Notes under the pieces: model-generated
Databases searched by the model: none
What the model saw: only the letters and a program-made list of their open reading frames with translations
Told to the model about the DNA's origin: nothing
Shown here: positions 15,901-29,192 of the stretch, in pieces
Layout of the letters: the number at the start of each line of letters is the position of its first letter
Numbering within the stretch: position 1 is the first letter of the stretch
Assembly (NCBI GenBank): GCA_043819795.1
Contig: JBDREN010000105.1
Span: 1-54,514, forward strand
Length of the DNA: 54,514 nucleotides
Direction: 5' to 3'
From: Elusimicrobiota bacterium
GTDB taxonomy: Bacteria > Elusimicrobiota > Elusimicrobia > UBA1565
Position numbers and translations under genes: made by a program

Positions 15901-18900
15901 GCCGCTCTGCCCGAAGGGATTGGAGGCGATGACCCGGAGGTGATACTGGGTGTCGGGGGAGAGGTAGGTGGCCTTCGCGGCGTTCGTCCGCGAAGCGTAC
16001 GACAGGACCTCTCCCGAGAACGCCGGCGAGACCGAAGCCTGGAGCGTGTAGGACTCCGCGCCGGAGGAGGCGTCCCATCGGGCCTCGAGCGACGTCGCCG
16101 AGGCGCCGACGATCTGCAGCCCGGCGGGCGTCTGCGGAGGCACGGGCGTCGCCCCGACGGCGGTGGCGAAGGCGGTGGGGACCCCGGCCGAGGACTGCGC
16201 CCGCGGATCGGTCTCGGCGCCCTCCCCGTTGACGGCCCGGACGCGGACGGAGTATTCGGTCTCTGGCTCCAATCCGTCGATCGTGGCGCTGGCGGCGGTG
16301 TGGGCGTCGTCGAAGGATATCGCCACCACGTCGTGCGCCGCGAAGCCGTCCTTCGAATAGCTCACCTCGTAGCGGGTATGGCCCGGGTTGGACGCGTCGC
16401 CCCACGAAACGGAGAGGCTGGTCAATCCGGCCGGGGCGACCGTCAAATCCGCGGGGGGGTTGGCGTGGGTGTAGGCGTGCGGGTCATCCGAGAACGGCCC
16501 GGGGACGCCGGACTGGTCGAAGCTCACCACGGACCAGTGGTAGTGGGTGTTGGGCGCGAGGCCCGGGCCCGCGTCGTTCGAGGAGCTCCCCGGGTGGGGC
16601 ACGTCCGGCTCGACGCGGGTCAGCTCGGGGTCGGTCAACGAGGCGAAGGGATGGTCCCCGGCCGCCCGGTAGACGGCGTATTTGCCGACGTTCGGCTCGG
16701 TCCGCGGGGTCCAGCTCACCGTCGCCTCGCCGGGCCCCTGGACGCTCACGCTCACGGCGGTCACGGCCTCGGGCGGAGCGGCGGCCTTGAGCGCGAAGCT
16801 CTCGGTGGCCGTCTGGCCGTCGTTGTTGGTCGCGGTGAACTCGATCCGGTTGAGCGTCTCGGAAGGCGCCAGCCCCGTGATGCCCGCGACGGTCAGATAA
16901 TGCGGGTCCTTGTCCGTCGTCCCGCCGGAGGCCGGCTCCATGCTGAGTCCGGAGTCCGGAACTTCGGCATAGTGCGCGCCCCCGTCGACGGTGTAGCGGG
17001 CCGAGAAGGCGCCGCCCGCCTCGATCGCGAAGTCCGCGAAGTCCGCGAAGTCCTGCGCGATCTCCGCGGGGCTTCGGGCCGCGCCCAGGATGCGGAAGCT
17101 GTCGACGATCCCCCAGTTCTGGGTTCCTCCCCCGGCGTTGCCGATGTAGTTCACGTCCTGCGTCAGCTTGACCGAAGAGGTGCCCACGTGGTCCGCGTCG
17201 ATGTAGAAGAGGGTCTGGCCGCCGGTGCCGACCGCCGTCAGAAGGTGCCAGCCGGACAACGGGTCGACGTCGTAGTTGCAGGAATAGAACGCCCCGCTAT
17301 AGACGCCGAGAAGGCCGTCGTTCCGGACGAGGACGTGATGGTAGTTCGGCCCGTACTGGGTCAAGGTCCGCCAGCTGCCGTGGCTGGCCAGCGGGAATCT
17401 GGTCCAGGCCTGAATGGTCCAGTCCGAGCCCATCGGGACATCGGGGACGGAGACGTAGTCGGAGGAACTGTCGAAATTCAGGGCCTTGCCGAAGAGCCCC
17501 TCGGTCCACGCCGGAGGCCCGTTGAGGCTGCCGTTCTCGCCGTTGCCGGACGCGTCCGAGACCGAGGTCCCCGTCCCTTCGTCGAACTGCCACAGGCCCC
17601 TCGTCTGCCCGGCGACGGCCCCGAGCGGAGCGCCCGTGGCGACCATGGTCTCGCTCGGACGGTCCGCGAAGTCCTCCGCGATCTCCTCGGGAGTCCGGGC
17701 CGCGTCCAGGATGCGCACGCTGTCGACGGAACCCCAATTCTGGGTTCCTCCCCCGGCGTTGCCGATGTAGTTCACGTCCTGCGTCAGCTTGACCGAAGAG
17801 GTGCCCACGTGGTCCGCGTCGATGTAGAAGAGCGTCTGGCTGCCGGTGCCCACCGCCGTCAGAAGGTGCCAGCCGGACAATGGGTCGACGTCGTAGTTGC
17901 AGGAATAGAACGCCGCGCTATAGACCCCGAGAAGGCCGTCGTTGCGCACGAGGATGTGATGATAGTTCGGCCCGTACTGGGTCAAGGTCCGCCAGCTGCC
18001 GTTGCTCGCCAGCGGGAATTTGGTCCAGGCCTGAATGGTCCATTCGGAGCCCATCGGGATGTCGGGGACGCTGACGTAGTCGGAGGAGCTGTCGAAATCC
18101 AGGGCCTTGCCGAAGAGCCCGTCCGTCCACGCCGGAGGCCCGCTGAGGCTTCCGTTCGCACCGTTGCCCGAGGAGTCCGCCGCCGAGGCCCCGCTTCCCT
18201 CGTCGAACTGCCACAGGCCTCTCGTGTGTTCGGCGACGGCCCCGAGCGGAGCGCCCGCGGCCCCCGGCGCGGTCACGGTCGCGCGCGCGTAGTCCTCGTG
18301 GATCTGCTCCGCGGTGGCGGAGTAGTTCAGGATGCGCATCTCGTCCAGGAGCCCTTCATAGTACCCGTAGTAGTAGCTGAAACCGGAGACGGCGGCCGAG
18401 GGATAGACATTCGCTCTGGGGCTGGTCAAGCCGGTCCGCACCAGGGCCCCGTTGACGTACAGGTGCGGCCGCTTGTCCGCGTAGACCACCGCGATGTGCG
18501 TCCAGCCCGAGATGGCGGCGTTGTACACGAGCAAAGAAGGGATGTATTGGTGCCCGTGCTCGAAGACGCTGATCCCGTCGGTCCCGACCGAGACCCCCGC
18601 TCCCGCGTCGGCTCCCACGAATCCTCCGTGCACCGGGGCGATCGCGTAGCGCTGTCCCGAGAGCCCGGCATAGCCGGAGGTGGATTCCGCGGTGGCGCTC
18701 CGGGTCGCGGCGGGATAGGCCCAGAACTCGATCGTGAAGTTGTTGGGGGCGCCGGTGAGCAGGCCCCCGGCTCCGGCGCAGTCGTCTATCCCGTCGAAGG
18801 AAAGGGCCTCTCCGACCTTGCCGGCGGCCCACCCCGTCCCGTTCTGGAGGGTGAAGGCCGCTCCGTTTCCGGAGGCCTCCGAGGCCGCGGTCCCGGAGCC

Positions 18901-19182
18901 CTCGTCGAAATGCCAGAGGCCCAGGGTCCCCGGGATGTTCCGGAGCCGCGCGTCCGAGAGCCTGAGCCCCACGGCGGGGTCATGGGCCGTGATCCGGGCG
19001 GAATGGCTGATTCCGGCCGGAGAAGACGGCAGCATGGCGGTGTCCGCGCTCGCCCATTGCCCATCGGAGCCCAGGACCTGGGGGGAGGAGAACTCCAGCG
19101 CGGACGCGCGCGCTCCCCAAAGCACGCTGGCCGCGACCAGGACGACCGTCGACTGCAGCTTCCAATGTCTTTCGGATTTCAT
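1..19182 (-). CDS. Giant secreted multidomain surface/adhesin-like protein, 5' end complete, 3' end runs off window start (>6,390 codons): signal peptide, 3x LamG (concanavalin A-like), FN3 domains, PKD domains, Big_9/cadherin-like domains, >=6 NHL-type beta-propellers, C-terminal tandem ~79-aa Ig-like domains
   Basis: ATG at 19182 gives MKSERHWKLQSTVVLVAASVLWGARASA (signal peptide) with an AGGGA SD-like motif upstream. No minus-strand ORF in this frame (first base = 0 mod 3) is reported anywhere between 1 and 19182, so there is no in-frame stop; the chance ORF length at this GC is ~50 codons. Spot translations at ~18780-19080, 15661-15720, 9541-9600, 7141-7200, 6421-6480, 3241-3420 and 781-1380 all give coherent domain sequence. 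Examples: LWHFDEGSGTAASEASGNG...ALSFDGIDD (LamG), NLWVADGQHNRVTMFPPP (NHL), DLAGNSASVTLEGIKID (Ig-like). The track omits it because it has no stop within the window. Confidence 0.85.
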   Translation of the reverse strand, partial: MKSERHWKLQSTVVLVAASVLWGARASALEFSSPQVLGSDGQWASADTAMLPSSPAGISHSARITAHDPAVGLRLSDARLRNIPGTLGLWHFDEGSGTAASEASGNGAAFTLQNGTGWAAGKVGEALSFDGIDDCAGAGGLLTGAPNNFTIEFWAYPAATRSATAESTSGYAGLSGQRYAIAPVHGGFVGADAGAGVSVGTDGISVFEHGHQYIPSLLVYNAAISGWTHIAVVYADKRPHLYVNGALVRTGLTSPRANVYPSAAVSGFSYYYGYYEGLLDEMRILNYSATAEQIHEDYARATVTAPGAAGAPLGAVAEHTRGLWQFDEGSGASAADSSGNGANGSLSGPPAWTDGLFGKALDFDSSSDYVSVPDIPMGSEWTIQAWTKFPLASNGSWRTLTQYGPNYHHILVRNDGLLGVYSAAFYSCNYDVDPLSGWHLLTAVGTGSQTLFYIDADHVGTSSVKLTQDVNYIGNAGGGTQNWGSVDSVRILDAARTPEEIAEDFADRPSETMVATGAPLGAVAGQTRGLWQFDEGTGTSVSDASGNGENGSLNGPPAWTEGLFGKALNFDSSSDYVSVPDVPMGSDWTIQAWTRFPLASHGSWRTLTQYGPNYHHVLVRNDGLLGVYSGAFYSCNYDVDPLSGWHLLTAVGTGGQTLFYIDADHVGTSSVKLTQDVNYIGNAGGGTQNWGIVDSFRILGAARSPAEIAQDFADFADFAIEAGGAFSARYTVDGGAHYAEVPDSGLSMEPASGGTTDKDPHYLTVAGITGLAPSETLNRIEFTATNNDGQTATESFALKAAAPPEAVTAVSVSVQGPGEATVSWTPRTEPNVGKYAVYRAAGDHPFASLTDPELTRVEPDVPHPGSSSNDAGPGLAPNTHYHWSVVSFDQSGVPGPFSDDPHAYTHANPPADLTVAPAGLTSLSVSWGDASNPGHTRYEVSYSKDGFAAHDVVAISFDDAHTAASATIDGLEPETEYSVRVRAVNGEGAETDPRAQSSAGVPTAFATAVGATPVPPQTPAGLQIVGASATSLEARWDASSGAESYTLQASVSPAFSGEVLSYASRTNAAKATYLSPDTQYHLRVIASNPFGQSGFSAPTSGYTPAQAPAPFYRFEDGQEEAAVLGQAGLDTVSRFGPSATSVYTPADIAFDSSGNLWVADGQHNRVTMFPPPHDGLRAATIVLGQEDLTSSTAGRDRDRLSMPMGLAFDPSGNLWVADRSNHRVLMFSPPFESGMDASVVLGQPDFTACCEATTRSGMNQPFDVAADASGNVWVADAYNNRVLEFTPPFSDGMDASLVLGQADFTSGGEARAGNRMRWAFQVAVDASGNVWVADNGNYRALMFSPPFADGMDAALVLGQGDFVVSNYYDNQTTMRCPLGIAFDPSGKVFLSDNITHRVLVFDPPLFNGMPATSVLGQTDFVSGAWGSGPASMTSPIGIAFHEGLLWVADWNNARLVAFAGALDDFPHLDAHALTVRWAAAGNPAGVQYLAQLSADPGFAGAPMESGWITDAGHAFAGLDSDTAYYARVKAKGQTAEETPFTDLGGATTLPPNTPPTAEAGADQTVTRGALVVVDGSGADADGDPVTLTWGVASAPQGSAPVVHQRPGETTAAFVADSAGIYMVRLTVSDGREGGTVEDTLELTVNALPPAADGAFQNGQEAGLVVGQPDFASYAGSSNPYSVAFDSAGNLWVSDWGKSEVLRYDAPLAGGMDASLVLGGFGYGGANRFFWPRGMAFDSTGRLWVVDNRDHRVLRFTPPFTDRMDADMVIGRADFGWGGAGGAPDQLSGPWGVAVDPDGNLWVADTGNYRVVRFKAPLSTGMSADVIIGGYGTTASTLYSPRGLAFDSEGNLWVAENDNRRVMRFSPPFASGMSADLVIGQDNFTSSVADTKASRFRYPRDVGFDAQGSLWVVEAENVGRALEFRPPFSNGMSASRVVGKADFTSTGETWPPTAASLNGCHGVAFDPQGNMAIADTNSRRVSYFLRPANNAPVADAGPDVELPQWAVATMDGSGSTDADGQPLSYTWTLAAKPAGSAVEGFTQTEVTVSSPSTSGDSGPYTDGYIRSESETSYRVDIGDASSLRLGNFGGQMVSHVYVGFDASFISPGASIVKATLKMYVWGGYLAEIGPAIVDLVDFGEALEFEDDSEPALVSNAATFLSEDYPAAGYHPVDVTEAVREALSSGLVPQFRIRAANEYAVGAQRLVYFSPSERSAAERPLLEITISPAWNRAQFQADAYGAYELQLTVSDGSLSSVDTAVVTAVRNDRPVADAQTAQAVRDGALPITLTASDREGAELGFAIVSPPSHGTLEGTPPNVTYLPAPGYLGADGFSFKVNDGVVDSDEAAVGISVVPLPEAPPALLAQLPPSGAAGMHGSYELAADRSGNWYVGQHSCCIMKYDIRGDLLLKWGAGGGGAGQFGTIGGMAFDSAGNVYVAGASNHRVQKFDAGGNFLMQWGAQGSGDGQFETPTGIGVDAAGNVYVLENAGQRVQKFSSGGGFLGKWSVGAGMQALGVDSTGGVFVLGGGSLLKYDSSGNQLAAWSLHGEDANGLAVDRFDRVYAAYRPVPAEDPVVRKIKRFTSDGLLSAEWRTDSDYVGNLAVDASGIVYAGHWHGEGKVVRYTAEGGLIDEFGGTSPGSLAGPSGVAVDASGNVYVADTNHNQVQKFDPAGRFVARWGREEGYSGGGDGQFNRPMDVAVDGSGNMYVVDFYNCRVQKFDAGGNFATKWGGGCGSGDTQFYLPSGIAVDAGGNVYVMDQYNNKVKKFDPNGNLLASWGAPGAGNGEFDRPERVAVDASGNIVVADTRNHRVQVFDPNGVFLSKWGVPGDRNGQLEYPAGLALDSSGNVYLTDAGNPLDPGQNNSRVQKFDAAGGLLTTWGTLGTDAGEFRYARDAAVGPDGRVYVADNENNRVQVFGAGAPPPVAHAQAVETQEDAAVAITLTGTGQGLAYTVVSGPEHGSLSGAAPNLSYTPQSGYYGFDAVVFKVSAGGVESAPAAAAIVVRNADDPPSFDAIADQASPMDGPAETVPIGGVSAGYNDPESVGMSAVSSDPSVVPHPVITGAGAVRSLSYQPAPGRSGTVTVTVTADDGRPPGDTFSRSFAITVYEAAPAAPSGLGIAGATATSLEAEWATSAGAETYTVEASVAAGFTGEVLSQLVETNRASVIGLSPDTLYYVRVKAANSGGESSFCAAASGTTSVYAPAPYYSFQTGQAAQAVLGQADASSNAAFGPSRASINSPVDMAFDASGNLWVVEMENHRILMFEPPHTGLRDATLVLGQAGFDFIDAGVSERRFWYPESIAFDPHGNLWVADRQNNRVLMFKPPFGTDMAASLVLGQDSFTTRSYVYGNDLSRMYQPAGVAADGAGNVFVADRHNSRVLLFSPPFSNGMAATRIIAHYEYVARPASLYYPNHVAVDRLGRLWVADYNHNRAVRFSPPFEDGMSADLVLGNPDLYASDYQTTRTATKKTWGIAIDPTGKVFVGDETNHRVMVFDPPLSDGMPAAAALGQADFTSGASGLGPDRLDDPRGAAFHDGTLWVADYNNRRLLAFAGTLDNFPYVNTFSLVVRWAAPGNPPGTQYLVELSDDPGFPAPLQSGWITDTSHTFPGLRKETAYHARVKAKGQMGVETTYTLLGGTTTRSDNAPPAADAGPDRTVDQGELVVVEGGGSDPDGDPVSIAGWEIVSSPGGGPVLHHRAGETAAAFVADSLGVYTLRLTVSDGREGGTDQDTVEITAHAPPAASHGAFQNGQDASVVLGAPDYAAFGSVNALRTLFDGSGNVWMSDGSKHRVLRYDAPLGTGAEPSLVLGQENLADGGSGLAADRLNSPNGMAFDPAGRLWVADSGNNRVLRFTPPFGDGMDADLVLGQAGFEANAAGSGAGELDGPRDVGFDGNGRLWLADTRNHRVLRFSPDPLQGFSSAMSAELVIGQSDFGLSGAGTTAGAMNSPRAVAFDASGDLWVSERDNHRILRFRPDPVNGFSTGMSADLVIGQDGFTSNTRYPYGPTRLSYPDAIAFDAEGSLWVAGSDHSRVFGFRPPFETGMAASRVLGRTEFNTTGCGRSQSRICEVYGVAFDRLGNLAVADTGNYRVMYFVRPPNIAPVADAGPDLELPQWAVAMVDGSGSYDAEERPISYTWSILTKPAGSAVSGFTQTENVISTPGASGPYLDGYIQFAGATPDGVNTGYTLFAGDFGGNRPVRSFMGFDVSFMPPGATVERAILKLYVSSAYDVDIGPVIVDLVDFGDTLELTDDAQPPVLAGVATFLGSAVRGGYTSLDVTAAVREALSRGLAPQFRIRATNEVSIPTQELVYIVPAEGDAAQRPRLEITVSPPVDKAQFQADAYGTYEVRLTVSDGWLSTDDTALVTAVRNDRPVADPQTAQAVQNGARQITLTGSDNEGAALAFAVVTQPSNGTLEGTPPGVTYLPALGYLGGDGFTFTVNDGVVDSVPAAVNISVVPPPESPPPFLAQIPRKAVKFSAFKIATDNAGNIYVGQNYCCVHKHDPAGNHLKTFGSFRYLGGVGVDSSGDYVYVSDRDNNRIIKYDSEGNQLLTWGSAGTGNGQFNGGPFGIDVGADGNVYVGEYAGGARIQKFDAQGQFLKSWAGGNYIQSVAVDSRNDVYATGVSMGINRFDSEGNLLASWAAPGGYPDLAVDRFSRVYVVARQGEWPYYSGVKKYSSTGQLLKEWDAFNDPATTVNDATADIHVGPSGIVYVPNYSLNTVRQWDTEGGFIEDWGGGVDGSLNAPNAVAMDSSGNIYVADTNNDRIQKFDPMGRFLAKWGKAGGGHGSGDGEFYRPIDVAVDAAGNIYVADFYNYRIQKLGPTGEFITKWGNNGSGDGQFSLPSGLAVDSANNVYVADRNNRVQKFDSNGTFLLKWGSSGTGDGQFNEPKRIAVNASGNIVVSDPRNNRVQMFDPNGTFLGKWDSYGSRKGQIKYPYGVGTDSSGNVFITEPRNPYNPSDNNARVQKFDASGSHLTEWGGYGSGQGQFIDPLDVASGAGGRICVADAGNNRVQIFGSGVSFPAAEALSVQTQENTAVALTLRGTGQAPVYSVVSGPDHGSLSGTPPNLTYTPETGYYGFDYVRFKVSDGGLESDTALASIVVLNVNNPPFFDEIADQAAPMDGPEATVAITGVFAGYNDPETVSFSAVSSDPLIVPDPAITSSGDTRTLSYQPAAGRSGTVTITVTADDGQAQDSIFTRTFDITIYEGPPPAPTGLSASASGAGGLGFHWNAVASAQSYTLEVSASADFTGEVHTFRTDATSVDDGGFIPDTLYSARVQAVNSMGAGAFAGPASARTLASRPVPARSFETGQNADLVLGQVDFNTKEYCNVSNGQPATQTSMCGPIGVAFDTSGNLWVSDYFSNRVMRYDPLQAGGLQSASLVLGQPDFTSTGRGTDRRTFRNPYGIALDNAGNLWVADSENHRVLRFDRPFSTHMEASLVLGQADFTTTGAATTQSGFNRPIGVAVDASGRMWVADMMNNRVLRFSPPFSDHQAADLVLGQPDFTSSGVRHLGKDLYQPRGVSVDADGNIWVADGSHLRVLRFSPPSGNYEEPNLVLGKETFTSPFPTAPTQTNTYYTHSLAFDASGKAYVVDAGHHRVLVFEPPFSNGMPASTVLGQPDFQSEIYTTAQNRLDAPREMAFDGSGALWFADHSNRRVLSFEGTPDSFRDARSQRVTAAWGGNRNPPGTEYSAQLAADPGFASPMESGWITDLSHTFTGLDPETGYYARVKARNQDGIETPYTDLGGATTLPPNRPPTVDAGADQTVDVGDLVALSGTAFDEDPEDAVSYGWTLKDSAGDPVSVEGADTLTPSFTPQKADTYTAELAASDGKEDASDTALIHALGTFESADEVNGKPELSLTAALEIAISAVDTAGDGAYLLAASHSQDLFPVGRLYDVGPHGASLDPAGALRMCYDPQVLADNGVAAGEVFLYHYAEPAWQELSAALDEESGCLSAELSELASIFGLFAVDRTSPAVAAMVPAGALQNVASPQFALAFSDTGSGAAPATLTASLDGSPRDYFVLAEGAGSMTLLFGLGEEGQRIEGEPTAETTYAMAEGERAAAFEMADRTGNKGTASASVTIDMTPPTVVVSSAPGTGQDGWSNGDVAITLECSDNHGLPEPACADPQPVAGEGAELSFSTTVVDLAGNSASVTLEGIKIDRMLPAIAASSSAATGQDGWSNGDVTVTFVCSDDGSGLAEGACPGDVTVEGEGADLSASGEVADLAGNVASVTLEGIKIDRTAPSITASRSAATGQDGWSSGDVTVSFACSDNGSGLAEGACPGSETVEGEGADLSASGEVADLAGNSASATLEGIKIDRTPPVITASSAPGTGLEGWSNVDVEVRFECADGLSGLAGPCPVAVAVDGEGADLSASADDDDQDANNTASTNGVSIK
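1400..16000 (-). repeat. Intragenic tandem super-repeat of the giant gene, ~6.3-kb period (~2,100 aa): two full copies (~9,700-16,000 and ~3,400-9,700) plus a partial copy (~1,400-3,400). Each unit reads FN3 - NHL propeller - FN3-like - PKD - NHL propeller - PKD - lectin-like 'DLVDFG' module - Big_9 - NHL propeller (NHRVQKFD type) - Big_9
   Basis: DNA/protein correspondences at constant offsets of ~6,280-6,360: 15860<->9575<->3290 (FN3/'APAP(F/Y)Y' junction), 14533<->8335<->1975, 14290<->8030, 12619<->6316, 12510<->6210 (~75% nt identity where compared). The antisense shadow ORFs 1390..6207 and 9064..13632 are visibly homologous. Confidence 0.75.
17027..17053 (-). repeat. 9-bp x3 perfect tandem repeat (gcgaagtcc)3 encoding DFADFADFA inside the giant gene
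   Basis: Read directly in sequence. The corresponding position in the preceding LamG copy has a single EDFAD. Confidence 0.9.
17090..18340 (-). repeat. Near-identical tandem duplication (period ~621 bp = 207 aa) giving LamG domains 2 and 3 of the giant protein
   Basis: 17111-17290 closely matches 17731-17910 (e.g. gttctgggttcctcccccggcgttgccgatgtagttcacgtcctgcgtcagcttgaccgaagaggtgcccacgtggtccgcgtcgatgtagaagag in both). The minus shadow ORFs 17297..17737 and 17918..18214 are homologous. Confidence 0.8.
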
Positions 19183-19299
19183 ATCCCTACCCCCACTGCG
19201 AATACTCCGCTTCGAACAGCGAAAGCGACCCACGCCGGCTTCGCCAGGACCTTTCCGTCCGTTGATACCGCATATCGGTTCTCCTCAATTAGGGTAGCC

Positions 19300-19585: not shown

Positions 19586-20989
19586 CTATTCCCGGTCAAA
19601 GCCTTTGCCCGGGCGGACCTTGAGGACCATCCCCGGGCGGATGAGGCGGGGATCGCGGATATCGTTGAGGCGGGCGATGCTCTTCACTGTCGTCCGGTAG
19701 CGGCTCGCGATCTTGCCGAGATAGTCGCCTTTGCGAACCTGGTAGCGGACGAACTGCGGCCCGGGATTCCAATCCTTGACTTTCGCCAGCTCGGACAGGA
19801 AGGCGTCTTTCGTCCCCTTGGGGACGCGCAGCGGATAGCCCTTGCGTTTCTTCGGCGTGCACCAGGCCCTGAGCTCGGGATTGAGGCGCTGCAAGACCGC
19901 CTTTGTGGTCCCCGCGCACCTGGCGGCGATTTCGAGGTCGAGGTCTCTTTCGATGGCGACGATGTCGTAGGGCTCGGGCTTTTCGTACTCCACGTTCAGG
20001 CCGTAGCGCTCGGGATTCTCGCCGATGAGCACGCAGGCCATGAATTTCGGGACGTAGTGGTGGGTCTCTTGCGGGAGGGCGCCCCGTTCCGAAAGGGTGG
20101 CGAAGTCGGTGGCGCGGGAGAACTGGAGGTCCCGTCCGATGCCGTTCTCCCCGCGGTTGTAGGCGGCGATCGCCAGGTGCCAGTCCCCGAACCATTCGCG
20201 TAGCTCCGAGAGATAGCGGATGGCCGCCCGGGTCGCCTTCTCGGGGTCGTAGCGCTCGTCGACCCAGTAGGAGACCTCGAGGCCGTACCCCCGCCCCGTG
20301 AAGGGCATGAACTGCCACAGGCCCCCCGCGCCGGAGCGCGACAGGGCCTTGAGCTTGTACTCGCTCTCCGCCATCACGAGGTAGAAGAGCTCCTCGGGCA
20401 GGCGCGCCTTTCGCAAAGCCGATACGATCATGTCCCGGTAGCGGCCCGAGCGGGCGAGGGCCGCCGCCACATCGGCGGGCCGCTTGCTCGTGTAGAGATG
20501 GACGAACTTCTTGGTGGTCTCGTTGTCGGGGTCGATCTCGATGACGTGCGGCCGCGCGCGGGGCTCGGGGATGCCGTTCGCGGGCTCCGTTTGGAGCTCA
20601 TCGTCCCGGACGTCCAGGGTGGAGGGGCTCTCCGTGTTCTGCTGGGCGCCTTCCCAGGTCCGGACCTTCTCGAGCATGCCGAGAAAGTCCTCCCGAAGCT
20701 CGGTCGGGAGCCCGTCCTCCTCCAAGAGGGACGTCAGGATGGCGAAGGAGCGCTCCAGGCGGGCGCGGCCGTCGTGGATCCGGCCTTCGCGGAAGTCCTC
20801 GAGGCCCGCGTCGTAGTGCTGTCCGGCCTTGTGGAGACGATCGAGCAGCAGCACCTCGGGATCTTCGGGCTGCGCGACGACGGGCTCTTGCCGCGGGTCC
20901 GGGACGGGAGCTTCCTGGGCGGACACGCACCGGTGGGCGCGGCAGAAGAGGACCGCCAGCAGGATGGCCAGGACGCGGATCAGTTTCAT
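19586..20989 (-). CDS. mltD: Membrane-bound lytic murein transglycosylase (SLT domain) with C-terminal LysM domain, MltD-like; signal peptide
   Basis: ESEYKLKALSRSGAGGLWQFMPFTGRGYGL...AAYNRGENGIG (SLT catalytic core); YQVRKGDYLGKIASRYRTTVKSIARLNDIRDPRLIRPGMVLKV (LysM); N-terminal MKLIRVLAILLAVLF. Confidence 0.85.
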   Translation of the reverse strand: MKLIRVLAILLAVLFCRAHRCVSAQEAPVPDPRQEPVVAQPEDPEVLLLDRLHKAGQHYDAGLEDFREGRIHDGRARLERSFAILTSLLEEDGLPTELREDFLGMLEKVRTWEGAQQNTESPSTLDVRDDELQTEPANGIPEPRARPHVIEIDPDNETTKKFVHLYTSKRPADVAAALARSGRYRDMIVSALRKARLPEELFYLVMAESEYKLKALSRSGAGGLWQFMPFTGRGYGLEVSYWVDERYDPEKATRAAIRYLSELREWFGDWHLAIAAYNRGENGIGRDLQFSRATDFATLSERGALPQETHHYVPKFMACVLIGENPERYGLNVEYEKPEPYDIVAIERDLDLEIAARCAGTTKAVLQRLNPELRAWCTPKKRKGYPLRVPKGTKDAFLSELAKVKDWNPGPQFVRYQVRKGDYLGKIASRYRTTVKSIARLNDIRDPRLIRPGMVLKVRPGKGFDRE

Positions 20990-21198: not shown

Positions 21199-21236
21199 GA
21201 AGAGCGCTCCCGGGCTTGGGCCCGGGAGCGCTCTTC
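21199..21236 (-). terminator. Rho-independent terminator candidate downstream of the SPFH gene: 17-bp perfect stem gaagagcgctcccgggc/gcccgggagcgctcttc, loop ttgg, then CUUCUUUCGG on the transcript
   Basis: Perfect inverted repeat read in sequence ~25 nt past the stop at 21260; U-rich tail on the minus strand. Confidence 0.6.
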
Positions 21237-21259: not shown

Positions 21260-22390
21260 TCAGCCGAGCTTCTGGCCGCAGGAGCCGCAGAACTTGGCGG
21301 CTCCGGGGACCTGCGCGTTGCACTTCGGGCAGGCGTGCGAGCCGAGGCGCTTGCCGCAGTTCGCGCAGAACTTCGCTCCGGCGGCCACGTCGCCGTTGCA
21401 GCCGGGGCACTTGGCTGTGGGCGCGACGACCGGCCCGCCGCATTCCGGGCAGAACTTCGCCGTGGCCGGGACCTGCGCCTTGCAGGAGCCGCAGGCGACC
21501 ACCTGCCGGGGCGAGGCTGTCGCCACCTGCCCCATGACGCCGGCCATCATGCCGCCCATGCCCGCGCCGGCGCCGAGGCCCATGCCGAGGCCCATGCCCC
21601 CGCCCATGGCGCCGCCCTCGCTGCCCGCGGCCGTTTCCATGGTGTCGAAGGTGCGCTTCATCCGGTAGTTCTGGCCGCCGAGGATGTCGATCTCGGCCTT
21701 CTCGGAGAGCGCCTTCTTCAGGCGCTTGACGGTGTCGTCGTCCTCCGGGACGTTGACGGAGTTGAGGAAGAAGTTTACGAGGTGGATGCCGAAGGCGGCG
21801 AAGTCCTTGCCGATCTTCTTCTGCAGGTCCGCGGAGATCTCCTCGAGATAGGCGGTGATCTCGAGGAGATTGACCTTTTTCTTGATGATCGTCTCGGCGA
21901 TGTAGTCCTTGGCCTTGGTGAGGATGATCCCGCGGAAGTAGTTCGTCATCGTGGCGATGGTGAACTCGGTCATCGTGCCGGAGAGCTGCACGACGAACTT
22001 GCGCGAGTCCTGGACGCGCACGCCGAACTGTCCGAAGGCCCGGACCGGGAGGAAGATGTTGTATTTCGGGTCGAGGATCGGGATCGGCGACTTGGTCCCC
22101 CACTTGACGTCGAGGTTCGTGGCCTTGTTGACGTAGTAGATCTCGGCCGCGAAGGGCGTCTCTCCGCCGAACGGCATCTTGATGAAGCGCCTCAGGAGCG
22201 GGATGTTGGAGGTCCGCAGCGTATGGGTGCCCGGGCCGAGCACGTCGAGAGCCTGGCCGCCCTTGAAGAAGATGGCCTCCTGGGACTGGTGCACGATGAC
22301 CTGCGTGCCCCAGGTGAGGTCGTCCGGGGGATGCTTCCAGACGAGAACGTCCGCCGGGCCTTGGTACTTTACTCGATCGATGATCGCCAT
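21260..22390 (-). CDS. SPFH/band-7-like domain protein with C-terminal Gly/Met-rich linker and 3-4 tandem zinc ribbons
   Basis: The N-terminal MAIIDRVKYQGPADVLVWKHP... resembles SPFH (Band_7_1-type). The C-terminus ACGSCKAQVPATAKFCPECGGPVVAPTAKCPGCNGDVAAGAKFCANCGKRLGSHACPKCNAQVPGAAKFCGSCGQKLG has repeated CxxC...CxxCG. SD GAGGAGGA upstream. Confidence 0.6.
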   Translation of the reverse strand: MAIIDRVKYQGPADVLVWKHPPDDLTWGTQVIVHQSQEAIFFKGGQALDVLGPGTHTLRTSNIPLLRRFIKMPFGGETPFAAEIYYVNKATNLDVKWGTKSPIPILDPKYNIFLPVRAFGQFGVRVQDSRKFVVQLSGTMTEFTIATMTNYFRGIILTKAKDYIAETIIKKKVNLLEITAYLEEISADLQKKIGKDFAAFGIHLVNFFLNSVNVPEDDDTVKRLKKALSEKAEIDILGGQNYRMKRTFDTMETAAGSEGGAMGGGMGLGMGLGAGAGMGGMMAGVMGQVATASPRQVVACGSCKAQVPATAKFCPECGGPVVAPTAKCPGCNGDVAAGAKFCANCGKRLGSHACPKCNAQVPGAAKFCGSCGQKLG

Positions 22391-22457
22391 ATCCGATCCT
22401 CCTCGAAGATGCTGCCTCTATGTTGATACTTCGCGGCGCCGGTTGTCAAGGCGGATG

Positions 22458-23240
22458 TCACCCCATCCGGGCCTTCAGGGAGGCCAGCATCCTGGCGACG
22501 GCCCCGTTCGAGGGGTCGAGCTCGTGGGCCTTCTCCAGGTTCTGGCGGGCGAGCTTGAGCTGGCCGAGGTGCTTCAGGAGCAGCCCCAGGCGGATGTAGA
22601 CCTTCGGCTCCTGCAGGCCGAAGTCGCGGGCCGCGCGGTACATCTTGACGGCGTTCTCCGCCTGGCGGGCGCGCTCGAGGGTCTCGGCGGAGAGGAAGTA
22701 GATGTGCTTGAGGTGGTCCTTGACGGCGAGCTCCTTGGCCTTCTGGAGCGTGCGCAGGGCCTCGCGCAGATGGTCTTCGCCCCGGGCCGAACGGGAGCGC
22801 GCGGCCCCGTTGTAGATGTGAAGGAGGCTGAGGGCCTCCTTCATCTTCGGGTTGAGCTTAACGGCCCGCTCCGCGTGCTGCTTGACGCACATGTTCGTCC
22901 AGCCGCGCCAGAGGGCGTAGTTCATCGCCTGCAGGTACTGCACCTCCCCCGAGATCGGGGCGTGCTCCGCCGCCTTGCGCAGGTGCTCGGCGGCCTCCTT
23001 GTGGAGCTTGCGCTTCACGTAATAGGCGGCCATGCCGAAATGGGCGTCGGGGTCATCGGGGTCCTCCCGGAGCTTCTTCTTGAACTCCAAGAATGCGCGG
23101 TCGAGCTGCGGCTTGCCGGCGCGCAGCAGGCCGAGCCCGCCCAGCCCGTGGACGATGGCGGCCCCGCAGAACTCGCAATGATCGACGTCCGACGAGTTCG
23201 GAGCCCCGCAGGCCGTGCAGCGGTCGGGATGCGCGCTCAT
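22458..23240 (-). CDS. N-terminal zinc-ribbon + TPR-repeat protein; start ATG overlaps the stop of the upstream Tim44-like gene (ATGA)
   Basis: MSAHPDRCTACGAPNSSDVDHCEFCGAAIV... then TPR-like helical repeats (…AAYYVKRKLHKEAAEHLRKAAE…YIRLGLLLKHLGQLKLARQNLEKAHELDP). It is the 3' part of track ORF 22458..25259, whose upstream part is out-of-frame junk. Confidence 0.65.
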   Translation of the reverse strand: MSAHPDRCTACGAPNSSDVDHCEFCGAAIVHGLGGLGLLRAGKPQLDRAFLEFKKKLREDPDDPDAHFGMAAYYVKRKLHKEAAEHLRKAAEHAPISGEVQYLQAMNYALWRGWTNMCVKQHAERAVKLNPKMKEALSLLHIYNGAARSRSARGEDHLREALRTLQKAKELAVKDHLKHIYFLSAETLERARQAENAVKMYRAARDFGLQEPKVYIRLGLLLKHLGQLKLARQNLEKAHELDPSNGAVARMLASLKARMG

Positions 23241-25222
23241 GGTCGCTCCTCCGGGGCCGAGAGCGCCTGCTTGGCCTTCCGGTACATGGCCGTGCGCTCC
23301 TCGTCGACCAAGGCCTTCACCTGGGCCGGCTGGAGCCGCATCCGCTGCCCGAAGGCCAGCAGCGCCTTCATCTCGGCGCTCGATATGCTCCCGTCGGCGA
23401 GGCTCATCTGGATGAGTCCGCCGAGATAGGCCCGGGCCTGGCTCGCGTCTTTCGGGCGGGGGACCTCGAGCCGGCCGGCCTGGGCCGCCCGCACCAGGGA
23501 CTGGATCCTGTCGGGCGGGATCCGATGCTTCCGGGCGTAGGACTGGGCGAAGGAAAGCTCGCGCTTGTCTATCTGCCCGTCCATGACCATCGCGCCGACG
23601 AGGATCGCCAAGGCGTCCGTCGGTCCCAGGGCCGAGGCCCAGTCCCCGTCGCCGTCCCCGCCTCCGGCGGGACTGGGCGCCCCGGCGGCTCCGGCCGCCC
23701 CGGCGGCGACCGGACGGGGCACGGCGCGCGGCCGCCACATCATGCGCGGCACCACCGAGACGACGATCCACTGGCGGCTGCCGTCGTTGAACGGCGTGCT
23801 GCAGTACTCGCAGGCGGCCAGACGGCGGTCCGAAGGCGGAGCCCCGCAGTTGCCGCAGCGCAGCGAGCGCAGCCCGGCGCCCGGATTCGTCACGGCGCCG
23901 CTCTTGCGGCCCAGGACGAATACGTGGGCCCGCAGGACCTGGCCCTTGGAGACCGGCTTGCCGTCCGAGACCAGGAAGCGCTCGGCCGACCAGCGGACCT
24001 GCACGTGCGCCCGGTCGACGTCGCTCTTCGGCTCGCAGGCGAGCGTCTCCACTCCGCCCACGGCCGCGTTCTTGTAGAGGACCTGCTCCCCCTGCCGCTG
24101 CCGCACGAAGGAGTCGCGGAATTCGTCGGCGGCCACGCTGCGAAGAGACTCGCCGTGGGGCTCCCAGTGGGCGAGCTGCCAGCGCCAGAACGCCACCGAG
24201 GCGCGGTCCTCCAGGAACTGGACGTTCAGCTCGGGGTCCCGCCGCGCCATCTCGGCGAGGCCCGGCACCGCGCGTCCGGGGTCCCTGAGCTTCCACTCGC
24301 AGGATTGGGTGATCTCGGAGAGCACCCAGTCGTACTCCCCGGAGTTCACCAGGGACTCGCAGCTGCCGCACTTGGCCGCGTCCGCGATCCGCAGAGGCGC
24401 GCCGCAGTTCGGGCAGTGCCCCTCGATGAGGCCGGGCTTCTGGAGGGTCTTCGCGCCGGGCCGCCTCAGCAACGACCAGACTTCGACGAACTCCTCGGCC
24501 CGCTTGCCGCTGTTGCGCAGCACGCTCCCGTCCTTGAGCGAGACGTCGGTGTCCACGGCGGAGGCGCGGACGCCGACGTGGATCGTGTCGAAGTGCTTGT
24601 CCGATTCGACCTGGACGACCCGCGCCTCGATGATCCGCACCTGCTCCATGCTGTTGCGCAGGCCCAGGGCCTTCTGCATGTCGATCTGGATGGAGAAGCG
24701 TTCTATCACCCCGTCGGAGACGAAGGCCCGGGCCGGGGACATGTCCTGGCCGGACCAGGCCTGCTGGATCTTCAGGAAGGCCGCGCCGACCCGGGACAGG
24801 AACCCCGCCTCCTCGAACCCCGGATCCCGCTTCTTGAGGCCGGCGAGGTTGGCCCGCTTCCGGAGGTCGCGCTGGGCCGCGGCCCCGCGGACGATGGTAT
24901 GCCCGACGTAGGCGGACTTCCCCTTCGTGCCCGTGAAGTACATGAAGCCGAGGAAGACGGCCACCGCCGGGATGCCGAAGGCCGGGTAGCGGACGGCCAA
25001 GTAGACGAGGTCGATGATGAAGCCCCCGCCGCCCCCGCCCCCGTAGCCGCTCCCGCCGCTGTAGCCGCCCCCGCCGCTGTAGCCGCCCCCGGAGCCGCCG
25101 CCGGAGTAGCTGTGGCCGCCGCCCGCGCGGCCGTAGGCCAGGGGCGCGGCCAAGGCCAGGACCGCGGCCAATAGCCCGGCGCGGCAAACCCAGGGTGCGC
25201 GGAGGGCTCTCAGATATCTCAC
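23237..25222 (-). CDS. Membrane protein with Gly/Tyr-rich N-terminus, TM segment, two Tim44-like (NTF2-fold) domains each followed by a zinc ribbon, and C-terminal TerB-like domain
   Basis: Gly/Tyr-rich N-terminus followed by TM FIIDLVYLAVRYPAFGIPAVAVFLGFMYF. Zinc ribbons CPNCGAPLRIADAAKCGSCESLV and CGNCGAPPSDRRLAACEYCSTPF. C-terminal DGQIDKRELSFAQSYARKHRI...SLADGSISSAEMKALLAFG is TerB-like. Domain names assigned by eye. Confidence 0.5.
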   Translation of the reverse strand: MRYLRALRAPWVCRAGLLAAVLALAAPLAYGRAGGGHSYSGGGSGGGYSGGGGYSGGSGYGGGGGGGFIIDLVYLAVRYPAFGIPAVAVFLGFMYFTGTKGKSAYVGHTIVRGAAAQRDLRKRANLAGLKKRDPGFEEAGFLSRVGAAFLKIQQAWSGQDMSPARAFVSDGVIERFSIQIDMQKALGLRNSMEQVRIIEARVVQVESDKHFDTIHVGVRASAVDTDVSLKDGSVLRNSGKRAEEFVEVWSLLRRPGAKTLQKPGLIEGHCPNCGAPLRIADAAKCGSCESLVNSGEYDWVLSEITQSCEWKLRDPGRAVPGLAEMARRDPELNVQFLEDRASVAFWRWQLAHWEPHGESLRSVAADEFRDSFVRQRQGEQVLYKNAAVGGVETLACEPKSDVDRAHVQVRWSAERFLVSDGKPVSKGQVLRAHVFVLGRKSGAVTNPGAGLRSLRCGNCGAPPSDRRLAACEYCSTPFNDGSRQWIVVSVVPRMMWRPRAVPRPVAAGAAGAAGAPSPAGGGDGDGDWASALGPTDALAILVGAMVMDGQIDKRELSFAQSYARKHRIPPDRIQSLVRAAQAGRLEVPRPKDASQARAYLGGLIQMSLADGSISSAEMKALLAFGQRMRLQPAQVKALVDEERTAMYRKAKQALSAPEERP

Positions 25223-25293: not shown

Positions 25294-27378
25294 ATGGCGT
25301 GGATGCGCCGGCCGCTGCGCCTTTTCCTGAGCCTCATTTTGTCGGTCCCGCCCGGCGCGTTCGCGGACGAGGGGATGTGGACCTTCGACAACCCTCCCCG
25401 CGACCTGATCGCGCGGCGCTACGGCTTCTCGCCGGACCAGGCATGGCTCGAGCACGCCCGCCTGGCCTCGCTGCGCTTCAACGACGGGGGCTCCGGATCG
25501 TTCGTCTCCCCCGAAGGGCTCGTCCTCACCAACCACCACGTGGCGATGGGCCAGCTCCAGAAGATGTCGACGCCCCGGAAGGACTATGTCCGCGACGGCT
25601 TTTTCGCGCGCGCCCGCGCGGAAGAGATCCCCTGCCCGGACCTCGAGATCAACCAGCTGGTCTCCTTCGATGACGTCACGCGGCGCGTGCACTCGGCCAT
25701 CGAGCCCGGCGTCGACGAGAAGCGGGCCAACGAGCAGCGCAAGGCGGAGACCGCCCGCATCGAGAAGGAATGCGCGGACGCCACGGGGCTGCGCTGCGAC
25801 GTCGTGGAGTTCTATCAAGGCGGGGAATACTGGCTCTACCGGTACAAGAAGCGCACGGACGTCCGCCTCGTCATGGCGCCCGAGATCGACGCGGCCTTCT
25901 TCGGCGGCGACTACGACAACTTCACCTATCCGCGCTTCGCCCTGGACTTCGCGTTCTTCCGGGTCTACGAGGACGGCGAGCCTGTCCGGCCCGAGCGCCG
26001 CTTCGCGTGGCGCCCGGGCGGGGCCAAGGAGGGGGAGCTGACCTTCGTCTTCGGCCATCCCGGCTCCACCAAGCGCCTGCGCACCGTCGCCCAGCTCGCC
26101 TTCGAGCGGGACCACGGCGCGCCCGCCATGCTGAGCTCGTTCCTGCGCGAGCGGGCGGCCCTGCGGGAGTACGCCGGGAAGGGGGGCGAGCAGGCCCGAC
26201 GGGCCAAGAGCAGCCTGTTCGGCGTCGAGAACGCCATCAAGGCGCTCGCCGGGATGCGGGAGGGCCTTTCCGATCCGGAGACTTTCGAGAAGAAGAAAGA
26301 GGAGGAGCGCCTCCTGCGCGAGCGCGCGGCCGCGGACCCCCTGCCGGCCGGGAAGGCGGCCGGAGCCTGGGACCGCATCGCCGGCGCGCAGGCCGAGGTC
26401 GCTTCCGCGTTCCCGCGCCTCCGGCACTACATGGGTTCGTCGCGGCGGGGGCACGCATTGACGGGCATCGCGGAGACCATCGTGCGCTACGTGGTCGAGG
26501 TCGAGAAGCCGAACGAGGACCGCTACGAGGAGTTCCGGGATTCCGCGCTCGAGTCCCTGCGCTTCCGGCTCTTCTCGCCGGCGCCGGTCTACAAGGACCT
26601 GGACGAAGCTCTTTTGGCCAGCCGCCTGCGGGAGTACCTCGACGACCTGGGCCGCGACGACCCCTTCGTGGCCGACCTGCTGGGGTCCACGTCGCCGGCC
26701 AAGGCGGCCGAGGCCGCGCTCGCGGCGACCCGTCTCGAGGACGTGGAGTTTCGCAGGAGCCTGGTGGAGGGAGGCCCGGCCGCCGTCGAGCGGACGGACG
26801 ATTCCCTCATCGCGTTCGCCCGGCGCGTCGATCCCCACTACAGGAGGCTGCGGGACTGGTACGAGGACGAGATCCAGAGCGTCGTGACGCGCGCCGGGCG
26901 GCGGATCGCCAAGGCCCGCTTCGCCCTCTACGGGAAGAACACGTACCCCGACGCGACCTTCACCCTTCGCCTGAGCTACGGCAAGCCGGCCTCCTACGAA
27001 CTGGGGACGACCCGCGTGCCGTACAAGACCGTCTTCGGCGGGCTATACGCCCGGGCCGACAGCTTCGACAACGAGCCGCCGTTCCGCCTGAGCCCGCGCG
27101 TAGCCGCGGCGCGCGGCGAGGTGGACCTATCCGTCCCCCTCGACTTCGTCACCGACCATGACATCATCGGCGGCAACTCGGGGAGCCCGGTCGTCAACAA
27201 GGACCTCGAGGTAGTGGGGCTGATCTTCGACTCGAACATCCACGGCCTCGTGACGAAATACGCCTATACCGAAGCCCGGGCCCGGGCGGTCGCGGTCCAT
27301 TCGAGCGCGATCCTCGAGGCCCTGCGCGGCGTATACGGGATGGAGTATCTCGCGCGGGAGCTGACGGGAGAAGAGTAA
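25294..27378 (+). CDS. S46-family dipeptidyl-peptidase (DPP7/DPP11/DAP BII-like serine peptidase), secreted
   Basis: Hallmark N-terminal DEGMWTFDNPP, catalytic region HHVAMGQL and IIGGNSGSPVVN, signal peptide, 694 aa. Confidence 0.85.
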   Translation: MAWMRRPLRLFLSLILSVPPGAFADEGMWTFDNPPRDLIARRYGFSPDQAWLEHARLASLRFNDGGSGSFVSPEGLVLTNHHVAMGQLQKMSTPRKDYVRDGFFARARAEEIPCPDLEINQLVSFDDVTRRVHSAIEPGVDEKRANEQRKAETARIEKECADATGLRCDVVEFYQGGEYWLYRYKKRTDVRLVMAPEIDAAFFGGDYDNFTYPRFALDFAFFRVYEDGEPVRPERRFAWRPGGAKEGELTFVFGHPGSTKRLRTVAQLAFERDHGAPAMLSSFLRERAALREYAGKGGEQARRAKSSLFGVENAIKALAGMREGLSDPETFEKKKEEERLLRERAAADPLPAGKAAGAWDRIAGAQAEVASAFPRLRHYMGSSRRGHALTGIAETIVRYVVEVEKPNEDRYEEFRDSALESLRFRLFSPAPVYKDLDEALLASRLREYLDDLGRDDPFVADLLGSTSPAKAAEAALAATRLEDVEFRRSLVEGGPAAVERTDDSLIAFARRVDPHYRRLRDWYEDEIQSVVTRAGRRIAKARFALYGKNTYPDATFTLRLSYGKPASYELGTTRVPYKTVFGGLYARADSFDNEPPFRLSPRVAAARGEVDLSVPLDFVTDHDIIGGNSGSPVVNKDLEVVGLIFDSNIHGLVTKYAYTEARARAVAVHSSAILEALRGVYGMEYLARELTGEE

Positions 27379-27509
27379 GGCGGGCACTGGAAGGACAACG
27401 GCATTCTTGCGACGGAGTTCCCGATAACGAAGGGGACTGAGCGCCGCAAGGCGAGCTTGCGGCGCTTACTTGGGCTGCTCCTGGCTCTCCATCACCTGCT
27501 GCAGGAGCT
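27378..27509. repeat. Direct repeat copy 1 (132 bp, perfect) = att-like site; contains a 10-bp-stem hairpin gcgccgcaag-gcgag-cttgcggcgc
   Basis: Identical to 29061-29192 base for base. Confidence 0.95.
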
Positions 27510-27927
27510 TCTGGGCGGATGCGACGTTCGACGATGAGGGAAAGCGCGCTGGGATGAAGCAGCGGGCGATACGGAGCGCGGCAGGTGAGAAGGACGTGAG
27601 GGCTCGATGAACGCGAAAGAAGGTCCGCAAAGCCGATTGCATCGAGCGGCGCGCCGCTCGGCCCATCCGCTGGGCATACGCCAGGAAGAAGGCTTCTACT
27701 TGCTCGGCATCCAGCCGTTTTAAACCGGGGACCGAAGGGAGACGGCGCGCAGTCAGACGGGATGCATCGGCATCCAGAAATGGGAAGTTATTCTTGCGCG
27801 AACCCTCAGGAACGTCAGGTCCAAGCCCCGGAGAGGCGAAGATGGGACACGGTCTTCCCCGGCAAACCCCCGGGCCCTTGACAGCGCAAGGGTCGCCGCC
27901 TAGACTGATTATGCCTCGGCCGGCCAC
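27510..27927 (-). pseudogene. Truncated tyrosine-recombinase/integrase N-terminal (SAM-like) fragment fused in-frame to the duplicated Yip1 3' end (chimeric ORF 27466..27927)
   Basis: LKRLDAEQVEAFFLAYAQRMGRAARRSMQSALRTFFRVH resembles the integrase N-terminal core-binding motif (…Y..L..FF.fL), followed by non-integrase sequence and then …LLQQVMESQEQPK from the repeat. No catalytic domain is present. Confidence 0.35.
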
Positions 27928-28037
27928 CCGATGAAAGAACGGCCTGCCGGGAAAGGAACGCCGGAAAACATGCGGCTTTCACATAGGCTGGCGCGGGGGC
28001 GGGGAGTGCGGCGCTGGCATCCGAAAGGGGAGGCGCG

Positions 28038-28475
28038 TTGCTGCCTCGGGTTCAGCAGGAGGGGCTGAGGACGTCGAGTCCGCCGCCTCCTGAGTCCCGT
28101 CGTGTGTCAGATGCAGGCTCTCGTCCTGATGATGATGAACCGGGCATGGTCAGTCGAGCGGTTTCCTTGGTCGGATCAAAAACGCGGCGAGGAAGCAGTT
28201 CCGCCAAAGACGATGGGTCTGGCTCAGGCTCATCGGACTCGAAGGGATTGGGCGCAGCCAAACGGGCGGCGCTGCATGGGGTAATATTCGGGGGCATTGT
28301 CGGTCTAGTAGCTGGGGGGGTCAGTCTTGGCCCCCCGGGCGCTGTCGGTGGAGGTCTCCTGGGCGTCGTCGTCGGGGCGGCGGTGGGGTGGTATTATGGC
28401 CACCATCATGACGCGATTTGGAGTGGAATAGGCAGGGATCTGAACGAGTTCGAACGGGACCAATTCGGGAACTAG
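28038..28475 (+). CDS. Small protein with hydrophilic Ser/Gly/Asp-rich N-terminal region and C-terminal glycine-zipper transmembrane segment
   Basis: TTG start with strong SD AAAGGGGAGG 5 nt upstream. C-terminus GVIFGGIVGLVAGGVSLGPPGAVGGGLLGVVVGAAVGWYYGHHHD has repeated GxxxG. Lower GC than the host. Confidence 0.55.
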   Translation: MLPRVQQEGLRTSSPPPPESRRVSDAGSRPDDDEPGMVSRAVSLVGSKTRRGSSSAKDDGSGSGSSDSKGLGAAKRAALHGVIFGGIVGLVAGGVSLGPPGAVGGGLLGVVVGAAVGWYYGHHHDAIWSGIGRDLNEFERDQFGN

Positions 28476-28482
28476 AAGAAAC

Positions 28483-28980: not shown

Positions 28981-28991
28981 AGGCGGGGTCA

Positions 28992-29050
28992 GGCTTGACT
29001 TTCGGGACAAACCCGGGCGGCCCCGGCGAATACTTCCCGAAAGTCAAGCC
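28992..29050. repeat. Perfect 16-bp inverted repeat ggcttgactttcggga / tcccgaaagtcaagcc with 27-nt GC-rich spacer, immediately 3' of the 4-TM gene and abutting the right direct repeat
   Basis: Read in sequence. Candidate terminator or recombinase-binding palindrome. Confidence 0.8.
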
Positions 29051-29060
29051 CGGCACCGTG

Positions 29061-29192
29061 AGGCGGGCACTGGAAGGACAACGGCATTCTTGCGACGGAG
29101 TTCCCGATAACGAAGGGGACTGAGCGCCGCAAGGCGAGCTTGCGGCGCTTACTTGGGCTGCTCCTGGCTCTCCATCACCTGCTGCAGGAGCT
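29061..29192. repeat. Direct repeat copy 2 (132 bp, perfect), contiguous with the intact Yip1 gene 3' end
   Basis: Identical to 27378-27509. Confidence 0.95.

Follow-up and report, generated by a model that had tools for sequence, protein, structure and literature searches.

The question raised by this locus is whether three adjacent genes, each encoding a four-cysteine (Cys4) zinc ribbon on a different module, form one conserved system, and what such a system might do. The genes are co-directional on the minus strand and occupy positions 21260-25222 of a 54,514-bp stretch of DNA from an uncultured Elusimicrobiota bacterium (contig JBDREN010000105.1; hereafter the window), which has a guanine-cytosine (GC) content of ~68%. 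A preliminary description of this DNA had proposed a three-gene module of the membrane-stress or defence type, with gene 1 and gene 2 overlapping in an ATGA. Open reading frame (ORF) calls place all three genes on the minus strand as described, and at 23237-23240 the ATG of gene 2 does overlap the stop codon of gene 1; counting of CxxC pairs gave two ribbons in gene 1, one in gene 2 and three in gene 3. Comparison with related loci revealed that the conserved unit is the pair of gene 1 and gene 3, not the triplet. We consider it slightly better than an even bet that gene 1 encodes a membrane receptor for a scaffold encoded by gene 3, the two making up a module that resembles YdjG/H-YdjI.

Relatives of each gene were sought in 80+ gene 1-related loci (designated by L numbers), with neighbours taken within 8 kb. 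The gene 1 family, with its full-length architecture kept, occurs in at least 586 species-representative genomes and spans Elusimicrobiota, Planctomycetota, Lentisphaerota/Victivallales, Verrucomicrobiota, Fermentibacterota, Riflebacteria and others. Of the 19 assessable Elusimicrobiota loci, 17 carry gene 3 as a same-strand gene downstream of gene 1, and the two are essentially gapless in nine. A more distant Band_7_1 gene is found directly upstream of the gene 1 homolog, again on the same strand, in Victivallales/Lentisphaerae (L041-43 and L045) and in one unclassified metagenome-assembled genome (L054); this partner carries C-terminal ribbons in L041-43 and L054, and a C-terminal GYF_2 domain instead in L045 (288..1481). 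A third arrangement is seen in Riflebacteria/Ozemobacteraceae (L072 and L080), where the Band_7_1 gene is convergent and downstream of the gene 1 homolog. When all neighbours were clustered without bias, Band_7_1 was the sole partner to recur across phyla. The reciprocal search found three divergent gene 3 homologs (52-57% identity) with unrelated flanks; each homolog is immediately preceded by a gene of the gene 1 type, even where identity to gene 1 has fallen to 27%. Other conserved partners of gene 1 were considered and rejected: the upstream block of Fermentibacteria-type loci (a divergent LarA-like gene and a response-regulator/PglZ gene) reflects lineage synteny and has no cross-phylum link.

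The co-occurrence of all three genes in other genomes, on which the preliminary description had staked its operon, did not hold. Outside the window, gene 2 was found only in the close relatives L005, L006 and L089, the last of which has it in inverted orientation; a cross-phylum conserved three-gene operon was therefore rejected. The gene 2 product is, as described, a tetratricopeptide repeat (TPR) protein with a ribbon: several TPR families scored above the Pfam cutoff (TPR_1 at 42.1 bits, TPR_2 at 40.7 bits, and others), and its N-terminal Cys4 ribbon comprises C8, C11, C22 and C25, with a Pfam ribbon match below cutoff (E = 0.011). To judge from its distribution, gene 2 is a recent, dispensable, clade-specific add-on between two core genes. 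In L004 and many other loci, the slot that it occupies is empty. L013 and L038 have small, unrelated genes there, L088 has genes for a GDSL-lipase and a beta-lactamase, and L067 has two M16 peptidases encoded on the opposite strand. In L090 the slot holds an NfeD-family gene (8890..10347) overlapping the end of the gene 1 homolog. NfeD is a classic SPFH partner; it is absent from the window, which distinguishes this locus from SPFH-NfeD pairs, and its appearance between the core genes of this one relative suggests that the slot gathers SPFH accessory genes.

Gene 1 encodes, in order, a signal or anchor helix, a Gly/Ser/Tyr-rich segment, a transmembrane (TM) helix that continues into a long stalk helix, two consecutive units each made of a Tim44-like NTF2 domain and a Cys4 ribbon, a Pro/Ala/Gly linker and a TerB domain. 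The hydrophobic helix at residues 6-33, which could be a signal peptide or a first TM helix, is followed by a nearly invariant RAGGG, and the Gly-rich segment at residues ~34-67 was modelled with low confidence. Hydropathy analysis placed the TM helix at residues 72-99, ahead of a Lys/Arg-rich stretch. This stretch and the Cys4 ribbons are the reason why the bulk of the protein, comprising its large C-terminal part, is predicted to face the cytoplasm. Pfam recognized Tim44 (PF04280) at residues 126-258 (E = 2.6e-24; 86 bits versus a cutoff of 29.6) and did not detect the second Tim44-like domain. Alignment of residues 118-310 with residues 311-492 by hhalign matched the two regions across 172 columns including the ribbon (probability 99.8%, E = 5e-29), thus indicating that the unit of Tim44-like NTF2 domain and ribbon has been tandemly duplicated. 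The fold of these domains is an alpha+beta cone nearest to Tim44 and mL45. The ribbon of the first repeat (C270, C273, C285 and C288) is placed ahead of the last strand, and that of the second consists of C456, C459, C471 and C474. All eight cysteines are invariant across 21 homologs with 38-60% identity to gene 1, and the ribbons form an integral and unvarying component of the domain that was duplicated.

At the C-terminus of gene 1, residues 537-635 score narrowly above the cutoff of the Pfam TerB model (PF05099; 26.6 bits versus 24.4), and the domain also gives a sub-threshold match to DUF533. The gene 1 family profile matches the solved TerB-like proteins 2h5n and 2ou3 in the PDB, and the structure model is helical across residues 528-655. 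With Pfam supporting Tim44 and TerB and hhalign supporting the second Tim44-like copy, the domain composition given in the preliminary description is upheld. Gene 1 falls below the cutoffs of the NCBIfam TimA and Tim44_TimA adaptor models (53.3 bits versus 80 and 34.5 bits versus 200, respectively).

Gene 3 encodes a Band_7_1 domain (residues 23-218), a long helix (residues ~219-255), a Gly/Met-rich low-complexity linker and three Cys4 ribbons (residues 300-371). Pfam matches to Band_7_1 (PF13421; E = 1.1e-44, 153 bits versus a cutoff of 24) and DZR (E = 5.4e-19) confirm the SPFH/band-7 assignment, with three ribbons rather than the three to four proposed before. Foldseek comparison of the gene 3 model returned stomatin, prohibitin and HflK/C at a probability of 1.0, along with QmcA and flotillin, and these matches cover the SPFH domain and the next helix. 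A sequence search of gene 3 against the PDB gave no meaningful match, and no solved structure matching this Band_7_1 subfamily by sequence was found. The likeness to SPFH cages (QmcA-YbbJ, HflK/C-FtsH, stomatin, prohibitin and flotillin) covers the SPFH domain and the helix that follows it; the canonical cage formers have an N-terminal membrane anchor of their own, whereas gene 3 has none, and hydropathy analysis detected no hydrophobic segment in either gene 3 or gene 2. Gene 3 orthologs range from 319 to 385 aa, and their Pfam ribbon matches run from several families to none, with the GYF domain standing in for the ribbons in one partner. The earlier suggestion that the shared ribbon points to a common ligand is thus weak, because the ribbons are of a generic Cys4 type, integral in gene 1, and variably matched by Pfam among gene 3 orthologs.

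The closest known counterpart of gene 3 comes from the pspA-ydjGHI (samGHI) envelope-stress operon of Bacillus subtilis. YdjI is soluble, and its membrane localization, and in turn that of PspA, needs the membrane proteins YdjG and YdjH (PMC8581546; bioRxiv 10.64898/2026.02.06.704340). YdjG has been described as combining an NTF2-like domain with two zinc ribbons and a TM segment (PMC11237479). A B. subtilis-type ydjGHI locus was recovered from a metagenome by means of a published ydjG primer sequence, and BLASTP aligned the whole of gene 3 with the YdjI of this locus (E = 2e-19); the Pfam content of the two also agrees. Like YdjI/SamI, gene 3 is a soluble Band_7_1 protein with a Gly/Met-rich linker and C-terminal ribbons, of which gene 3 has three and YdjI one. 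The full-length alignment and the same layout indicate that gene 3 is a YdjI-type SPFH protein. In both systems, moreover, the SPFH gene lies beside a gene for a membrane-anchored protein that combines ribbons with NTF2-like domains. The two membrane proteins are built differently: YdjG has N-terminal ribbons, an NTF2-like domain related to YpeB and a C-terminal TM segment, whereas gene 1 reverses this order, with the TM helix first and the ribbons embedded in the domains, and its NTF2 domains are of the Tim44 type, duplicated and supplemented by TerB. By analogy, gene 1 may be a non-homologous counterpart of the YdjG/H anchor, assembled from Tim44-type domains and TerB.

Two other comparisons bear on gene 1. 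Through their shared fold, Tim44 and mL45 lie against the matrix side of the inner membrane and tether a partner machine there. Gene 1 differs from the Tim44 C-terminal domain and mL45 in being bacterial and TM-anchored, in having the domain duplicated with a Cys4 ribbon in each copy, and in its fusion to TerB. Its C-terminal domain, which passes the Pfam TerB model, also resembles TerB-superfamily envelope proteins (TerB COG3793, DUF533/YebE and the DjlA N-terminal domain). YebE and DjlA of Escherichia coli are inner-membrane proteins tied to the Cpx and Rcs envelope-stress responses. The literature searched contained no description of a Tim44-like/SPFH pairing or of a TerB-Tim44 fusion.

A mechanism is proposed in which gene 1 would be anchored in the inner membrane and its Tim44-like domains would rest on the cytoplasmic leaflet, much as Tim44 and mL45 lie on the matrix face. 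There it would recruit the anchorless gene 3 product to the cytoplasmic face of the membrane, and gene 3 could then oligomerize into an SPFH ring or cage that organizes or restrains a membrane patch. The ribbons would serve as protein-protein contact modules, and TerB might act as a metal-, ion- or stress-sensing regulatory domain, while gene 2 would be a lineage-specific soluble adaptor inserted between the core genes. The sensing role of TerB, like any stress function of the module, is something that we infer. A bolder version, which we put forward tentatively and regard as possible rather than probable, is that double Tim44-like/ribbon/TerB proteins constitute a widespread class of inner-membrane receptors, present in the species-level genomes counted above, that dock YdjI-type SPFH scaffolds, with TerB gating assembly upon leakage of ions or metals, so that the pair would work as a PspA-independent membrane-damage module. 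Such a class would also supply the first functional context for bacterial Tim44-like domains, with a bearing on the origin of membrane tethering by Tim44 and mL45.

Several observations weigh against the idea that gene 1 is the receptor for gene 3. No Band_7_1 gene was found within 8 kb of the gene 1 homologs of Planctomycetota (0/13) or Fermentibacterota (0/18), nor in most gene 1 loci of Victivallales and Riflebacteria; gene 1 can therefore act with no partner next to it, or with one encoded at another site. The resemblance to the B. subtilis system does not extend to homology of the membrane proteins, since alignment of the gene 1 profile with YdjG by hhalign covered 28 ribbon columns at a probability of 49%; with the ribbon alone aligning, gene 1 was rejected as a YdjG orthologue. 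In a further difference from pspA-ydjGHI, no PspA (PspA_IM30) or TPM (YdjH-like) gene is present in the annotated loci L004 and L088-L093 or among the scanned window ORFs. The gene 3 model is of moderate confidence (predicted local distance difference test, pLDDT, 65.9), and the physical contact between the gene 1 and gene 3 products is one that we infer.

The absence of a neighbouring Band_7_1 gene from most gene 1 homologs outside Elusimicrobiota is also what would be seen if the two genes had independent functions. Their adjacency would then reflect nothing beyond inherited synteny or shared regulation, and gene 1 would work on its own as a TerB-type stress protein of Tim44-like, lipid-binding character. 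The tolerance of unrelated genes between the pair, including opposite-strand genes in L067 and L089, fits this explanation as well. However, at least three phyla show the pairing, which comes in three different gene orders and involves different Band_7_1 subfamilies, and it persists while all other flanks change. Plain synteny does not predict this, and we therefore doubt that the two genes are unconnected. Gene 3 could alternatively cage a membrane protease or its substrates for SPFH-regulated proteolysis or quality control, in the manner of HflK/C or stomatin-NfeD, with gene 1 as a substrate, adaptor or regulator. Here the NfeD homolog that lies between the gene 1 and gene 3 homologs of L090, overlapping the gene 1 end, and the match of the gene 3 fold to the HflK/C and QmcA-YbbJ cages are set against the restriction of NfeD to a single locus and the lack of any consistently linked FtsH or other membrane protease. 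The S46 peptidase that adjoins gene 1 in the window does not strengthen the case, as it looks window-specific and its N-terminus is signal-like. Such a role in proteolysis seems unlikely, although it can be compatible with membrane anchoring of gene 3 by gene 1.

Annotation names suggest a further possibility, namely metal or tellurite resistance (from 'TerB') or lipid transport (from 'Tim44 family lipid-binding transport protein'). The TerB motifs are indeed conserved, and some sources call the homologs 'predicted lipid-binding transport protein (Tim44 family)' or 'zinc-ribbon domain-containing transport protein', but these source names are automatic annotations, and no other ter genes (terZ, A, C, D or E) or transporter components were found among the scanned window flanking ORFs or in the annotated related loci, which makes either role very unlikely. 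An anti-phage or abortive-infection module assembled from SPFH and TerB parts is more improbable still. Some loci for stress or defence do contain TerB and SPFH domains, and the TerB region of gene 1 has a weak PADLOC match to the candidate model PDC-S48 (E = 2.4e-5, 21.6 bits). PADLOC gave no match for gene 3, however, and what it returned for genes 1 and 2 was limited to weak, partial matches with models that are either candidates or unrelated; there is no nuclease, NTPase or other effector domain, and the pair looks vertically inherited within Elusimicrobiota, outside variable islands. The flanks are housekeeping genes that are syntenic with relatives (cysS, SpoU methylase, Yip1, SLT/LysM, hrcA-dnaK-dnaJ and dnaG-rpoD). 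Because of these flanks and the absence of a convincing PADLOC match, the locus is not a defence island, and a defence system was rejected. The membrane-scaffold or stress theme of the preliminary description remains reasonable, while its defence component and the supposed association with defence islands find no support.

The signals around the genes are consistent with a transcription unit that closes after gene 3 (Table 1). The gap between gene 2 and gene 3 is unstructured (fold z +0.68) and contains a Shine-Dalgarno GAGGAGG ahead of the gene 3 ATG, as well as a candidate internal promoter, the imperfect motif TTGACA-N15-TATCAA. A consensus promoter scan found none, and a consensus terminator scan reported no minus-strand terminator. 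Inspection by eye revealed a hairpin past the gene 3 stop codon, whose GC-rich stem is 17 bp long and perfectly paired, with UUUC after it; folding gave a free energy of -48.7 kcal/mol (z -7.7), which was equalled by none of 200 shuffles. The consensus scan missed this hairpin because its T-tract is short, with just UUUC after the stem. Gene 3 is therefore probably the last gene of the transcription unit. Terminators with short T-tracts may be used by high-GC lineages such as this one.

Table 1. Features of the gene 1-gene 3 locus and of its nearest neighbours, in window positions.
Feature	Position	Strand	Description	Evidence
Gene 1	23237..25222	(-)	661 aa, predicted inner-membrane protein	ORF calls, Pfam, hhalign, alignment, hydropathy, structure model
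Gene 1 N-terminal membrane region	24926..25207	(-)	Predicted topology	Hydropathy, alignment, model
Gene 1 repeat 1	24293..24871	(-)	Residues 118-310, Tim44-like NTF2 domain with embedded ribbon	
Gene 1 repeat 2	23747..24292	(-)	Residues 311-492, second Tim44-like NTF2 domain	hhalign, invariant cysteines
Gene 1 TerB-like helical domain	23258..23641	(-)	~Residues 528-655, two conserved DG...E motifs	Pfam, PDB profile matches, alignment, model
Gene 2	22458..23240	(-)	260 aa, soluble, ribbon and TPR	ORF calls, Pfam, hydropathy
Gene 2-gene 3 gap	22391..22457	(-)	67 nt, carries the gene 3 ribosome-binding site	Sequence
Gene 3	21260..22390	(-)	376 aa, soluble YdjI/SamI-type SPFH protein	ORF calls, Pfam, alignment, model
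Terminator-like hairpin	21199..21236	(-)	Starts ~24 nt past the gene 3 stop codon	Found by eye, folding
SLT/LysM	19586..20989	(-)	Lytic transglycosylase with signal peptide, beyond the hairpin and a 270-nt gap	
Yip1	29149..30360	(-)	Yip1-domain multi-pass membrane protein	

The order common to relatives has SpoU and cysS facing Yip1, followed by gene 1, gene 3 and SLT/LysM. The Yip1 homolog is directly upstream of gene 1 in L004, L005 and L090, and in the window it is separated from gene 1 by an insertion (25294..29148). This insertion comprises an S46 dipeptidyl-peptidase gene (25294..27378, plus strand) and a stretch of lower GC content (~0.61) at ~27.4-29.1 kb, whose small ORFs have no Pfam match; Rfam and tRNA scans found nothing in the window, the insertion included. 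The S46 peptidase looks like a window-specific insertion because it is not beside the gene 1 homolog in any of the related loci searched. On the other side, SLT/LysM comes after gene 3 in L004, L088 and L090, which belong to the closest clade, and not in L091-L093. SLT/LysM, a Ser/Thr kinase and Yip1 were accordingly rejected as members of the module: they are syntenic in the closest clade alone and absent from L091-L093, and SLT/LysM lies past the strong hairpin.

The Ser/Thr protein kinase gene comes after SLT/LysM in the closest clade, at 12917..15043 in L004, where its product has TPR repeats, and at 12946..15018 in L090. Its position in the window is taken by a giant NHL-repeat gene (1..19284, minus strand), an ORF of >6,428 codons that runs off the left contig end and has Pfam matches to many NHL and beta-propeller repeats, Big_9, fn3, PKD and Laminin_G_3; from its domains, the product looks like a huge surface or adhesin-like protein. 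Elsewhere in the window, at 46537..47787, long ORFs are present on both strands with similar GC at the three codon positions (~0.8, 0.57 and 0.8), and composition alone does not settle which strand is coding. Small toxin-antitoxin pairs lie a few kilobases from the module in two related loci (BrnT/BrnA at 1314..1813 in L088 and ParE/PhdYeFM at 738..1336 in L092) and are not conserved with it.

The locus reveals no new kind of system and no defence mechanism; its interest lies in how SPFH scaffolds reach the membrane. Soluble Band_7_1 SPFH proteins are very common, and their membrane docking is understood in B. subtilis alone, where it proceeds via YdjG/H. The locus points to a second, non-homologous docking partner of the Tim44 type, one that is conserved across Elusimicrobiota and found again in Lentisphaerota and Riflebacteria. 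Should this reading be correct, the idea of a soluble SPFH scaffold held by a ribbon/NTF2 membrane receptor would be generalized beyond Firmicutes and PspA. A large family now annotated just as 'TIM44-like domain-containing protein' would also gain a testable role, and the pair would offer a bacterial model of Tim44-fold tethering.

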